64,000 nucleotides of DNA from Escherichia coli (GCF_024223415.1 NZ_CP100500.1); one strand, 5' to 3'; shown: positions 52,598 through 64,000, counted from the stretch's first letter. Notes: generated by a model from the letters alone, not told the origin. Numbers and translations: made by a program.

Positions 52598-52642
52598 TGG
52601 CGCGCCCTGCAGGATTCGAACCTGCGGCCCACGACTTAGAAG
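52598..52642 (-). other. partial tRNA-Arg (argU-like) 3' fragment, likely a lambdoid prophage attachment-site remnant
   Basis: Reverse complement CTTCTAAGTCGTGGGCCGCAGGTTCGAATCCTGCAGGGCGCGCCA is the anticodon loop (UCU), T-arm and acceptor 3' end of a tRNA-Arg; the 5' half of the tRNA is absent. Confidence 0.75.
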
Positions 52643-53065
52643 TTCCTAGAACGACATTTTAAGTCAACAACTTACCGCGCCATCTCTGCGCTCACACGTC
52701 CCACTACCTCAAAACATGTAAAGCCTTGCAAGCCATTGTGAGGCCTTATGTGTCTCAGTTTTGTCCCTCTTTTTTGTACCAAAAAACATAGCAATTGAGG
52801 ATAAACCTCATGCTATTTTCGCTTATATGCCTCTAAAGGCATGGCACTTAAATAGATAAAAGCACCACAAAAGCATAAAAAAACCACACAGTAAAACCGC
52901 AATATGAAACAATAACAGATAATTAAACCAAAAACAGATAGCGCATTGTGATAATCATTCAATACTAAACAAAATATAAACAGTGGAGCAATATGTAATT
53001 GACTCATTAAGTTAGATATAAAAAATACATATTCAATCATTAAAACGATTGAATGGAGAACTTTT

Positions 53066-54019
53066 ATGCGGGCGAAACTTCTGGGAATAGTCCTGACAAC
53101 CCCTATTGCGATCAGCTCTTTTGCTTCTACCGAGACTTTATCGTTTACTCCTGACAACATAAATGCGGACATTAGTCTTGGAACTCTGAGCGGAAAAACA
53201 AAAGAGCGTGTTTATCTAGCCGAAGAAGGAGGCCGAAAAGTCAGTCAACTCGACTGGAAATTCAATAACGCTGCAATTATTAAAGGTGCAATTAATTGGG
53301 ATTTGATGCCCCAGATATCTATCGGGGCTGCTGGATGGACAACTCTCGGCAGCCGAGGTGGCAATATGGTCGATCAGGACTGGATGGATTCCAGTAACCC
53401 CGGAACCTGGACGGATGAAAGTAGACACCCTGATACACAACTCAATTATGCCAACGAATTTGATCTGAATATCAAAGGCTGGCTCCTCAACGAACCCAAT
53501 TACCGCCTGGGACTCATGGCTGGATATCAGGAAAGCCGTTATAGCTTTACAGCCAGAGGTGGTTCCTATATCTACAGTTCTGAGGAGGGATTCAGAGATG
53601 ATATCGGCTCCTTCCCGAATGGAGAAAGAGCAATCGGCTACAAACAACGTTTTAAAATGCCCTACATTGGCTTGACTGGAAGTTATCGTTATGAAGATTT
53701 TGAACTCGGTGGCACATTTAAATACAGCGGCTGGGTGGAATCATCTGATAACGATGAACACTATGACCCGGGAAAAAGAATCACTTATCGCAGTAAGGTC
53801 AAAGACCAAAATTACTATTCTGTTGCAGTCAATGCAGGTTATTACGTCACACCTAACGCAAAAGTTTATGTTGAAGGCGCATGGAATCGGGTTACGAATA
53901 AAAAAGGTAATACTTCACTTTATGATCACAATAATAACACTTCAGACTACAGCAAAAATGGAGCAGGTATAGAAAACTATAACTTCATCACTACTGCTGG
54001 TCTTAAGTACACATTTTAA
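53066..54019 (+). CDS. ompT: outer-membrane protease OmpT (omptin)
   Basis: 317-aa ORF recognised as OmpT (MRAKLLGIVLTTPIAISSFA...AGLKYTF). Confidence 0.93.
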   Translation: MRAKLLGIVLTTPIAISSFASTETLSFTPDNINADISLGTLSGKTKERVYLAEEGGRKVSQLDWKFNNAAIIKGAINWDLMPQISIGAAGWTTLGSRGGNMVDQDWMDSSNPGTWTDESRHPDTQLNYANEFDLNIKGWLLNEPNYRLGLMAGYQESRYSFTARGGSYIYSSEEGFRDDIGSFPNGERAIGYKQRFKMPYIGLTGSYRYEDFELGGTFKYSGWVESSDNDEHYDPGKRITYRSKVKDQNYYSVAVNAGYYVTPNAKVYVEGAWNRVTNKKGNTSLYDHNNNTSDYSKNGAGIENYNFITTAGLKYTF

Positions 54020-54268
54020 GAACGCCAACTAAAATTTCCCCGAGGTGAAAATCGCCCCGGGGAATAACTAGCCATTTCAATGTAACAATTAACCCTTAAA
54101 ATAAACCCAGAAGGTTATTAACTAAATCACATAAAAAACCATCAATTATAGTATGTATAAAATAGGCGACAGCAACCCAATTACAAATTAATGGTTCCAG
54201 AATATCACATCAAAAAAAACGCTGTATAATATTATAATTAACATGTAGACAACTTGTAATAAACATTA

Positions 54269-60632: not shown

Positions 60633-60650
60633 GGCGTCATTCCTGACGCC
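60633..60650 (-). terminator. hairpin terminator between J and lom
   Basis: GGCGTCA-TTCC-TGACGCC flanked by A-run and T-run. Confidence 0.45.
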
Positions 60651-60672
60651 CTTTATTGGGGTTATAAATATT

Positions 60673-63600
60673 TCAACGAATACTGATGCCGGAAGCGGCT
60701 TTTTTGGTCACAATCACCGTACAGTCGGTGATATTGCCTGCCCCCTGATTGCCTTTCTGGAAAATCTTAAACTCCAGAGTGACGCTTCCCCTGCCACTCG
60801 GCATATCAATAACTGCACTGTAACTACCGGGAATGGCCCCTTTAGTTTCTCTGGATGCGATTAATACGCCGTTTTTGCGAACTTCAAAACCATAACCCGT
60901 GTATCGCGTGCCTCCTGGGTTATTTCCGCTCCCCGGATCGTCATACGCTATACCGTTAAAAATAATGGGCGGAATAATAATCTGGCGGTCAAAGTTATGA
61001 TCATCGCTGATGGTGACTGTAACCGTACCGTTTGGTGTTTCCGTGTTACCCCACGTACCGACTTTTTTCGGGAAGGCTTTTGATACAGCTTTAACGAAAT
61101 CTCCTCTGACCTGGGTCGCCTCCAGCATGCCCTTAATCGTACAGTTCTGGTTAATCGTGACATTGTTGAGCGTTCCTGAGTTCGCATTCACACTGCCACT
61201 GATATCCGCATTTTTCGCCGTCAGTCTCCCGTCTGATGTCAGGGAAAATGCCGGAGGATTACCGCCGCTGGTAATGGTGGGGGCCGTCAGGCGTTTCAGG
61301 AACACTTCATTCATGAATATCTGATCGCCCTGACCAACAAACATCGGCTTTGTGTTGCCATTCGCAGGATTAATCATCGCAATCCTGTCTGCTGCCAGCA
61401 GCACCTGACTCTGCATGCCGTCAGGGGTGTTCTCAATACCGGCACCGATACCCGCAATATAAAGGCGTCCGTCCTGCATCTGCTGCAGCTTCACTGCCCA
61501 CATGCTGTTCAGGTTATTATTTGTATCAACCTGAACCTTCTGTATCTGCTGGATCGCTGCACTCTGGTCTTCCAGTTTCTTATTGACGGTCTGTGTTATT
61601 TCATTGCTGACATCCGTTATGGACGTCCTGATTTCAGTCAGGTCAGGCGCAAGCTGACCGTTATCAATCTGCGTCCACAGCTCCTGAGCCAGATGGGTTT
61701 TCCCTATCTCGCCTTTGAAAAAATCCAGGTAACCTTCCGCATCATCGCTCGCCCGACCGACGGCCTCCACGAATGCCGATTTGCCAACGGTGTTCACACT
61801 GCGGATATAAAAGTAATAATCATGGCCCGGTTTGATATTGATACTGGCGGCTATCCAGTACAGCCCCGTGCCAAGGTAGCGGGCTGTGGTTTCAACCTGC
61901 CTGATATCGGTAATCCGCGTTTCCGAGAACCAGAACTCAAACTGTACCGTCGGATCATAAACCGCAAGATGCGGCGTGGCAGTTATCTGAAAATAGCCCG
62001 GCGTCAGCTCAATCCGCGACGGCGCTGCCGGGGCGGCAATCCGGAACGATACCGACGCCGGATCGCCCTGCTGTCCCCGGGCATTTACCGCCCGGACCGT
62101 CAGCGTGTAACGCCCCAGCGCCAGTTGCCTGAAGCGGTAAGTGGTTTCCGTCGTCCGGGCCGTGCTGACCAGCCGCTCACGGCCGTCATCCGCTGCCACG
62201 GTCAGGCGAAGCAGGAAGCTCACGCCCTTCACCACCTTCGGCGTGTCCCAGCGGGCCAGCACCTGATACTCCCCGCTGTCTGCGGTGACTTCTGCGGTCA
62301 GGTGCTGCACCGCTGGCGGCGTGACACCATTTACCGTGCCGCTCTGGTCGCCGTCAAAGTGCGCCCCGTTATCCACGATGGCCTCTTTTTCCGGTACATG
62401 CTGCACGGCGGTGATGGCATACGTGCCGTCGTCGTTCTCACGGATACTCACACAGCGGAACAGGCGCTGGCGCAGCGTCGGCAGCTTCAGCCCCCACACG
62501 CTGTATCCGGCAACGCCGTCAGGAACACGGCTCACTTTCACCTTCACGCCGTCGGTGACGGACTGAACCTCCACGCTGACCGGATTGCCACTTCCGTCAA
62601 CCAGGCTTATCAGCGTGGTACCGGAGGATGGCAGCGTGATTTCACGGTCGAGCGTCAGCGTCCGGGTCTGGCTGTTCACCGCCAGCACACGCCCGCCGGT
62701 GCTGATCCCCGCATAGTCATCATCACAGATTTCAATGACATCGCCCGGTACATGGCGAAGCCCTTCTGCGCCCACGCTGAAGTCCACGGTCTGCGTCTCC
62801 AGCAGCTCCGTTTTAATCAGCCACAGCCCGGCGCGGTGTGCCTGCCCCCGGCTGGTACAGCCAAAGGCATCCATCTTCGTGACGTTACGACCGTAACGGA
62901 CAATGGCCTGCGTATCCTCCACAAGCTCTGTCGCCGTCTCCTGGCCGTTATTCGGGTCAATCCAGTTCACCTCAACGGCATTATGACGGTCCTTCAGGGC
63001 GCTGAAGCTGTAGCGGAACGGCGCGCCATCATCCGGCATCACCACATTACTGCGGTTATAGGTCCACACCTTATCCGATGGCCGGTCCTGCACGAACGTC
63101 AGCGTCTGCCCGTTCCATACCGGCATACAGCGCATCGCCGAGCAGAAATCACTGAGCACATCCCACGCCTTGCGCTGCGTGGTCAGGTACGCATTACAGG
63201 TGATACGCGGTTCCGTGCCACCAAAGCCATCCGGCACCGACTGGTCGCAATTCTGGCCGATGACATACAGCGCCCATTTATCCACATCCGCCGCACCAAG
63301 ACGTTTCCCCATGCCGTAGCGCGGATGGGTCAGCATATCCCACAGACACCAGGCCATGTTGTTGCTGTATGCCGGTTGTAACGTTCCGTCCCAGATACCG
63401 CTGTATTGTCGCGTCTGCGGGTTATAATTCGACGGCACCTGCAGAATACGCCCGCGAAGATGATAATTACGGCTCACCTGCTGGCTGCCGAACTGCTCCG
63501 AATCCACCTGCACACCGACCAGTGCCGTGTTCGGGTAGCACTGTTTCACATCGATGATTTCGGTGTATGACGACCAGAGCGTTTTGTTCTGCAGCTGGTC

Positions 63601-64000
63601 TGTGGTGCTGTCCGGCGTCATCCTGCGCATCCGGATACTGAACGGGCGCGGCGGCAGGTTACCCACCACCACCGGGGCCAGATACTGCGAGGTGGTTTTG
63701 CCCTTAATGGTGATGTCTTTTTCCGTTAACCAGCGACCGTTACGCTGTATCTGAACCAGCAGGCGGACTTCCGACGGATTCCGGTCCCCCTTTGAGGTGG
63801 TTTCCACCAGTGCCTGCACACCGAAGGTCAGGCGCAGACGGTCGATGTTTGCCGACGTGATGGTCCGGGTAATCGGCGTGTCGTACTTCACTTCCGTACC
63901 CAGCACCGTCTCGGAGCCGGAGGATTCAAATCCCTCCGGCGGTGTCTGCTCCTGCTCACCTGCCCGGAAAACCACCGTGACACCGGAGATATTGGTATTC
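60673..64000 (-). CDS. lambda J-like tail tip / host specificity protein (5' end beyond the window)
   Basis: ORF open to the window edge (more than 1100 aa); fibronectin-III-like central region and C-terminal receptor-binding region; gene order J-lom-stf-tfa. Confidence 0.85.

Follow-up and report, generated by a model that had tools for sequence, protein, structure and literature searches.

The rightmost part of the window, by which is meant the whole 64,000-nucleotide stretch of Escherichia coli DNA that was analysed (GCF_024223415.1 NZ_CP100500.1), almost certainly consists of the attR site and the distal late and accessory end of a lambdoid prophage of the DLP12 family that has argU as its integration site. 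Direct evidence was drawn from comparison of four att sequences including an empty site, the collinearity and integrity of the ORFs, and the presence of the same genes on isolated phages. The junction itself is already known: the RefSeq record of K-12, in which the 'cryptic prophage DLP12' (564755..586056) extends from nt 33 of argU to the base preceding the second 45-bp copy, places the boundary at the same base, and the argU duplicate is present in the literature. For DLP12, Lindsey, Mullin and Walker (1989) are cited in PMC6379469, and an argU-like DLP12 attR of about 47 bp is described in that article. The window junction is a textbook prophage junction, and its value is modest and lies in the context that it provides.

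The 45-nt segment at 52598-52642, TGGCGCGCCCTGCAGGATTCGAACCTGCGGCCCACGACTTAGAAG, forms the core of attR of the lambdoid DLP12 prophage. The preliminary description, made from the sequence alone, had placed a 45-bp copy of the 3' part of tRNA-Arg(UCU) between envY and ompT, and this was borne out exactly: the segment is the reverse complement of nt 33-77 of K-12 argU, from the anticodon loop to the CCA end, and it matched that gene at 45/45 bases, with identity gone at base 46. The core was present as a single copy in the window, even when up to 3 mismatches were allowed, and the number of copies expected by chance was 0.00 (100 shuffles). It begins 45 nt past the stop codon of envY (51791-52552, plus strand), and ompT starts 423 nt beyond it. 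The features identified in the window from the core inward are listed in Table 1.

Table 1. Features of the attR-proximal prophage end, with positions counted from the first nucleotide of the window.
Feature	Position	Strand	Evidence
attR core, copy of argU nt 33-77	52598..52642	-	45/45 identity; same core in Kati attP, K-12 attL, and K-12 attR
Phage-derived attR arm (ompT-side arm of attP) and ompT upstream region	52643..53065	.	85 nt identical in window, K-12 attR, and Kati attP
ompT, omptin outer-membrane protease, 317 aa	53066..54019	+	Pfam Omptin, E = 5e-130
appY, AraC-family transcriptional activator, 249 aa	54269..55018	-	Pfam HTH_18 and HTH_AraC
tfaX, tail-fibre assembly gene remnant, 61 aa	55639..55824	-	Pfam Caudo_TAP, partial (profile positions 75-105 of 131)
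ybcY, class I SAM-dependent methyltransferase, 222 aa	55881..56549	+	Pfam methyltransferase domains; open
tfa, intact tail-fibre assembly protein, 194 aa	56604..57188	-	Pfam Caudo_TAP, E = 3e-45
Start of the ~21.6-kb late-region segment deleted in K-12 DLP12	57043..64000	.	blastn alignment with K-12 ends at 57042
stf, side tail fibre, 918 aa from GTG	57188..59944	-	Pfam phage_tail_N, Phage_fiber_2 repeats, and Collar; without internal stops
lom, Ail/Lom outer-membrane beta-barrel protein, 199 aa	60003..60602	-	Pfam Ail_Lom, E = 1e-122
J, tail-tip host-specificity protein, at least 1108 aa	60673..64000	-	All gpJ Pfam domains; 5' end beyond the window

The attR of the window was compared with the attP of the isolated phage Kati, the attL of K-12, and the empty attB of other E. 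coli chromosomes. The window attR consists of the envY flank, the core, and the ompT-side arm; Kati attP consists of an int-side arm, the core, and the same ompT-side arm; and K-12 attL, in which the same core lies at argU-intD, consists of the int-side arm, the core, and the 5' half of argU. The first 85 nt compared past the core on the ompT side were identical in the window, K-12 attR, and Kati attP, and the int-side flank of K-12 attL was near-identical to that of Kati attP. In the Kati genome, the core (5936-5980) comes after int (4757-5920) and before ompT. Empty sites were sought with a chimeric fimZ-argU-envY query, which was covered to at least 80% at one place in 2449 of 5426 complete E. 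coli genomes, the best matches being one 1850-bp piece with 100% identity. The four att sites fit the Campbell model, in agreement with the earlier suggestion of an integrase-generated attachment site.

Under the mechanism proposed here, attP carries, 15 bp past the stop codon of the tyrosine integrase gene, a core of 45 bp that is identical to argU nt 33-77. The integrase would recombine this core with the 3' half of chromosomal argU and the phage would be inserted, so that argU would be rebuilt at the left end (attL) and followed by int, and the 45-bp copy of the argU 3' part would remain at the right end (attR), adjoining envY. Catalysis is presumably by IntD, with the crossover position lying within the core. 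An attP that includes the 3' part of a tRNA gene is documented for DLP12, CP4-6, and CPS-53, in which integration restores a functional gene and a partial copy of it stays behind at the opposite junction, and DLP12 is reported to rebuild a functional tRNA and still to be excised at low frequency (PMC3105296).

The slot inward from attR, which contains ompT, appY, tfaX, and ybcY, may be regarded as an accessory region resembling the b region of lambda, with ompT and appY as lysogenic-conversion cargo moving with the phage. Its GC content was 26-43% (30-32% in appY) vs 52-57% in the host flank. The window OmpT was 100% identical to that of K-12 and 99.7% identical to the proteins of the phages PhiR68_2 and Kati, and AppY was 99.6% identical to those of K-12, PhiR68_2, and Kati. 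The proposal that ompT and appY ride on the prophage was upheld by their position between the tail fibre genes and attR, their low GC content, and their occurrence on both phages. A scan for consensus promoters and terminators near ompT and appY gave counts no higher than those of shuffled sequences; published K-12 biology, rather than the window sequence, suggests that the lysogen expresses the two genes from promoters of their own. TfaX was 100% identical to its K-12 counterpart, and over 157 nt its DNA was approximately 85% identical to that of the intact tfa. The 'tfa copies' of the preliminary description were confirmed as two tfa-related ORFs, but only one of them is an intact gene, the other being a fragment.

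On the opposite strand and inward of the slot, tfa, stf, lom, and J make up the terminal part of a late operon of the lambda type: they are arranged on one strand in the lambda-type order, with their characteristic domains and zero disruptions. The true start of stf is likely to be the ATG at 59938, two codons in (MAVKISG), which gives a protein of 916 aa. The N- and C-terminal parts of this protein were 94-99% identical to their PhiR68_2 and Kati counterparts, and its central repeat region was variable. Lom was 100% identical to that of both phages, and J, which is open up to the last base of the window, was 97.7% identical to theirs. The tail module had been described as intact-looking, which holds for the visible genes, all of them open, but J is cut by the end of the window and only the distal part of the module is covered. 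The genes Z, U, V, G, T, H, M, L, K, and I are present upstream of J in E. coli OkiPb01714 and GPEC1189 and in PhiR68_2.

Alignment with K-12 by blastn gave 99.2% identity over window positions 50000-57042, unbroken through envY, ompT, appY, tfaX, and ybcY into tfa, within which the homology ended, and protein identities across the shared genes were 97.7-100%. The window prophage and K-12 DLP12 have in common the argU/fimZ-envY site, the 45-bp core, and the gene order. They differ in ybcY, which is intact in the window but labelled a pseudogene in the K-12 record, with a K-12 match that starts no earlier than residue 7, and in approximately 21.6 kb (relative to OkiPb01714), including stf, lom, and J, which K-12 lacks. 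The K-12 deletion extends from about codon 103 of terminase gene A to about codon 49 of tfa; the junction, with a 3-nt microhomology, fuses the terminase gene A stub to tfaD, which retains only tfa residues 50-194. The statement in the preliminary description that stf, lom, and J are absent from K-12 was correct. The K-12 deletion junction was found in only 370 of the 5426 complete genomes. K-12 DLP12 is the same element minus this segment and a lineage-specific deletion derivative.

The same genes were found on two free, circularly closed phage genomes, PhiR68_2 (PV340576.1, 49.7 kb) and Kati (PP925833.1, 46 kb), both with the arrangement int-attP-ompT-appY-tfaX-ybcY...tfa-stf-lom-J; the window, in contrast, contains an integrated right end only. 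Matches to the window began at 52643 for PhiR68_2 and at 52596 for Kati. The phages share with the window the int-attP core, the ompT-side arm, the cargo, and the tfa-stf-lom-J order, with 94-100% protein identity except in the central repeat region of stf, and they differ from it by two additions between tfa and ybcY, a DNA invertase of the pin type and a segment resembling ynaE, both missing from the window, and by a longer stf (1025 and 1132 aa compared with 916-918 aa). PhiR68.2 has been used in plaque (EOP) assays (bioRxiv 10.1101/2025.11.03.685801), which bear on that phage and not on the copy in the window; ECOR13 is the host given for PhiR68_2. Our literature search returned no paper explicitly discussing active phage carriage of ompT. 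The gene ompT, whose protease matters both for virulence and for strains used in protein expression, is, together with appY, phage cargo carried beside attP in a lineage that has living members.

J, lom, stf, and tfa have the same order and orientation as in lambda (J-lom-stf-tfa-b-attP-int), which likewise has a non-essential accessory region between the tail fibre genes and attP and undergoes Campbell-type integration by a tyrosine integrase, as does the DLP12-type element. Lambda differs in its attB, which lies between gal and bio and has a 15-bp core with no tRNA gene as target, and in its b region, which lacks ompT and appY. P22 and P4-type elements likewise use the 3' half of a tRNA gene as their insertion site, and the present element differs from other tRNA-targeting elements in its target argU and its core length (45 bp, from the anticodon loop) alone, the mechanism being ordinary.

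Two other origins of the junction and its neighbouring genes were weighed against a single DLP12-family prophage. A decayed tRNA pseudogene, derived from a local duplication of argU and unrelated to site-specific recombination, would account for the weak match to the Rfam tRNA model beside the core (52609-52692, minus strand; 24.8 bits, E = 0.16) and for the 'tRNA-Pro' annotation of the core plus 39 nt in the Kati record. That match is below the gathering score of 29, no tRNA was found by ARAGORN in a scan of the entire window, and the 95-nt putative pseudo-tRNA stretch did not fold better than shuffled sequence (z = -0.46); the full tRNA gene that would have contradicted an att site was thus not found at the junction by ARAGORN, and the 'tRNA-Pro' label is an annotation artefact. 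Moreover, a match that is perfect over exactly 45 nt and then falls to noise is typical of a recombination core and not of gradual decay; the attP of a free phage has this core next to its integrase gene; and precise empty sites exist in other genomes. A pseudogene origin, at odds with the comparison of attP, attL, attR, and attB, was rejected as extremely improbable. It is only slightly less improbable that a second element, lying beside a small ompT-appY island, is the source of tfa, stf, lom, and J, the argU fragment bounding the island or a tandem array. Tail-tip modules are mosaic, and the best E. coli DNA match to window positions 57000-64000 (97.6%) was to a lambdoid prophage with an HK97-type head located at another locus in strain 0H26. 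Nevertheless, no second att core was found in the window, and the interval from ompT to J has no integrase ORF; the identity with K-12 DLP12 continues without a break from envY into tfa; and the string from ompT through tfa-stf-lom-J is contiguous both in the single phage genomes PhiR68_2 and Kati and in one argU-bounded prophage in each of GPEC1189 and OkiPb01714. A separate adjacent element was rejected on these grounds, which also contradict the assignment of the tail genes to another element that the preliminary description had named as a refutation.

Given a DLP12-family prophage, its state is a further matter, and the window covers its right end up to a point inside J. The suggestion that it is less decayed than the K-12 remnant holds for the 7 kb visible, in which the ORFs are open, and is limited to those 7 kb. 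There is about an even chance that it is a defective remnant, with the distal tail intact and parts of the int, immunity, replication, or head regions past the window deleted or disrupted. Relatives provide examples of this state: OkiPb01714, the top-ranked relative for a 14-kb query (98% coverage, 96.6% identity), has a full head and tail region and the same right end as the window, yet its integrase gene is frameshifted and cut by IS3 and its early region up to ylcG is deleted, and AR_0089 is reduced to ompT-ybcY-tfa'-int'. The 14-kb query was covered to at least 80% at one place in only 94 of the 5426 genomes; its best matches in the complete E. coli collection were 96.6-98.0% identical, and no record in that collection was at least 99% identical to the prophage part over its full length. 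Against a defective remnant stand the open state of every ORF visible in the window, the identity of Lom and J to those of isolated phages, and the existence of apparently complete prophages of the same architecture, such as that of GPEC1189, which extends from argU-intD to J and combines the gene order of K-12 DLP12 with head and tail genes. At the far prophage end, argU and an integrase gene were found in K-12, GPEC1189, and OkiPb01714, disrupted in the last. That the window prophage is a complete, inducible DLP12-type temperate phage, by which OmpT and AppY are moved between strains through lysogenic conversion at argU, is possible but on balance doubtful; if it is such a phage, EmrE and the NmpC porin would, by analogy with the relatives, probably move as well, and the 'cryptic' DLP12 of K-12 would be the corpse of a still-circulating phage lineage. 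The contents of the accessory slot differ among strains, and in some of them appY is replaced by an alpha/beta hydrolase.

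The preliminary description had placed a 45-bp copy of the 3' half of argU between envY and ompT, and this was confirmed at window position 52598-52642, where the sequence TGGCGCGCCCTGCAGGATTCGAACCTGCGGCCCACGACTTAGAAG is the exact reverse complement of nucleotides 33-77 of K-12 argU (tRNA-Arg, anticodon UCU), the part that extends from anticodon loop to CCA end. Identity with argU is 45/45 and is noise from base 46 onward. Even with up to 3 mismatches permitted, the window contains this 45-mer a single time; it was absent from 100 of 100 dinucleotide-preserving shuffles, and it lies 45 nt past the envY stop codon and 423 nt before ompT. 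A full tRNA gene at this position was not found, as ARAGORN predicted none in the whole window and the Rfam tRNA model scored 24.8 bits at the fragment, against a gathering score of 29. The GenBank record of Kati, an isolated phage of the DLP12 type (PP925833.1), labels its positions 5936-6019 (the attP core plus 39 nt, equivalent to window 52598-52681) 'tRNA-Pro'. The identical window sequence was rejected by ARAGORN, fell below the Rfam threshold, and folded no better than shuffles; the label is probably an annotation artefact.

Window 50000-57042 was aligned in reverse orientation with 581659-588699 of K-12 MG1655 at 99.2% identity. The K-12 RefSeq feature 'cryptic prophage DLP12' (564755..586056) starts at argU nucleotide 33, and its last base lies directly before a second 45-bp copy in the ompT/envY interval. 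Because this annotation ends at the second copy, the window fragment is identified, by sequence comparison, as DLP12 attR (the right prophage junction), a boundary already marked in the reference genome. The attP (free-phage site) of Kati consists of an int-side arm, the core, and an ompT-side arm; attR of both the window and K-12 consists of the envY flank, the core, and an ompT-side arm identical to that of Kati, and attL (left junction) of K-12 consists of a near-identical int-side arm, the core, and the 5' half of argU. A chimeric query for attB (the empty site), in which K-12 fimZ-argU was joined straight to the envY flank, was searched in 5426 complete E. coli genomes; it was covered to at least 80% at one place in 2449 of them, and the best matches were one 1850-bp piece at 100% identity. 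This four-way comparison demonstrates the sequence relationships of attP, attB, attL, and attR and, at that level, makes the Campbell-model relationship explicit. Given these relationships and the empty attB in other genomes, all DNA from argU to the 45-bp copy, ompT and appY included, is inserted. The PhiR68_2 record, from a second isolated phage of this type (PV340576.1), opens (1-52) with 7 nt (CAACGAC) that match host argU 5' of the core, unlike the Kati attP arm, and this suggests that it was excised at prophage (attL...attR) coordinates and not assembled as a circular phage genome.

Gene calls were made by ORF listing, Pfam scans, and translation.

Features flanking the attR junction in the window
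Feature	Position	Strand	Description
envY	51791-52552		neighbour of argU fragment
ompT	53066-54019	+	Omptin, 317 aa
appY		-	AraC-type HTH, 249 aa
tfaX		-	tail-fibre assembly gene fragment, 61 aa
ybcY	55881-56549	+	class I SAM-dependent methyltransferase, 222 aa
tfa		-	full-length, 194 aa
stf (side tail fibre)		-	phage_tail_N, fibre repeats, Collar; 918 aa from GTG
lom		-	Ail_Lom, 199 aa
J		-	all gpJ domains; at least 1108 aa, open through final window base

The visible ORFs are intact, with no internal stops in any gene from ompT to the visible part of J; the side tail fibre probably starts at the ATG giving MAVKISG (916 aa). GC content drops from 52-57% (nfrA, ybcH) to about 41-43% across ompT and 30-32% across appY, with 26% in the spacer that separates appY from tfaX. 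The ybcY gene, annotated as a pseudogene in K-12, is intact in the window and in both phages. The Rfam candidate sRNA IS009 matched above its gathering score (229.5 bits) at 56647-56845 (-), inside tfa, and again at 55598-55801 (-; 110 bits), inside the tfaX fragment, so that this 'RNA family' coincides with conserved tail-fibre-assembly coding sequence.

The tail genes might instead have come from a different adjacent element, but no second att core was found in the window, no integrase lies between ompT and J, and these genes form one contiguous series in PhiR68_2, in Kati, and in the argU-bounded prophages of strains OkiPb01714 and GPEC1189, which argues for a single element. The 49.7-kb PhiR68_2 genome has the order int, exo-bet-gam, cI-cro-cII, O-P-ren, emrE, ybcK-L-M-N, ninE, ybcO, rusA, ylcG, Q, nmpC-like porin, S-R-Rz, bor, Nu1-A...J, lom, stf, tfa, pin, ybcY, tfaX, appY, ompT. 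Protein identities of the window to PhiR68_2 and Kati were 99.7% (OmpT), 99.6% (AppY), 97-98% (TfaX), 99% (YbcY), 94% (Tfa), 100% (Lom), and 97.7% (J); the N- and C-terminal parts of Stf were 94-99% identical and its central repeat region was variable. The view of ompT and appY as prophage cargo stands, as both lie within the inserted DNA, with the tail fibres on one side and attP on the other, and are also carried by these phages. Since PhiR68.2 was employed in efficiency-of-plaquing assays (bioRxiv 10.1101/2025.11.03.685801), living DLP12-type phages with ompT and appY exist.

Homology to K-12 ends at window 57042, within tfa; at that point the K-12 sequence joins what remains of terminase gene A (aaaD), with 3 nt of microhomology. 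The K-12 deletion amounts to about 21.6 kb relative to OkiPb01714, and window 57043-64000 is the start of the lost segment. The preliminary description was right that K-12 lacks stf, lom, and J, and its reading of the region is supported, with 'less decayed' demonstrated only for the distal 7 kb, the window stopping inside J. The deletion junction was present in only 370 of the 5426 genomes and, among the matches listed, in K-12-derived or laboratory strains.

Phages with tyrosine integrases that target tRNA genes are well established and, by analogy, IntD would recombine the 45-bp attP core with the 3' half of argU, which would restore a functional argU at attL and leave the partial copy at attR; ompT and appY may be lysogenic-conversion genes that the prophage expresses. 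According to PMC3105296, DLP12 restores a working tRNA gene and is still able to excise, in fewer than 1 per 100,000 cells, and a passage of PMC6379469 citing Lindsey et al. 1989 gives its integration at argU and an argU-like attR of 47 bp. The boundary is annotated in RefSeq, and public databases contain both free phages and full-length prophages of this type; the window junction was correctly described but already known.

The closest matches to the prophage region in complete E. coli genomes had 96.6-98.0% identity. The prophage of GPEC1189 is apparently complete from argU-intD through J; that of OkiPb01714 combines complete head and tail genes with a frameshifted and IS3-disrupted integrase and a deleted early region; and that of strain AR_0089 (record L006, 7418-10400) is cut down to ompT-ybcY-tfa'-int' beside argU. 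AR_0089 also lacks envY and the sfm/fimZ genes. ompT and appY occur together in 824 genomes, in many more the match covers just the initial 56% of the query (attR arm and ompT), and strain 51489 (L007, 8563-10047) has an alpha/beta hydrolase in place of appY; the accessory slot adjoining attR is variable. The best DNA match among genomes to window 57000-64000 (J-lom-stf-tfa), 97.6% over its full length, was in strain 0H26 (L009, 19605-27381). There it belongs to another lambdoid prophage, which has an HK97-type head and occupies a separate chromosomal locus; this tail-tip block is mosaic, and 0H26 is an example of tail-tip module exchange among lambdoid prophages.

Elsewhere in the window, a 12.7-kb insertion relative to K-12 (32690-45379) lies between cusS and nfrB. 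It contains a 633-aa ORF (VgrG in the relative OkiPb01714), ORFs of 153 aa (DcrB-related) and 580 aa, a 1606-aa ORF for a protein with a zincin-like metallopeptidase toxin domain, and an ISEc1-like transposase (44119-45255). Within the toxin gene some stretches are repeated, with 40984-42485 and 43485-43975 matching one and the same region of OkiPb01714, and the insertion resembles a T6SS vgrG/toxin island that carries orphan toxin tips. The window lacks, at about 18174-18185, the IS186B that K-12 has between hokE and entD, and the remainder of 1-32690 (ent/fep to cus) is collinear with K-12 at 97-98% identity.
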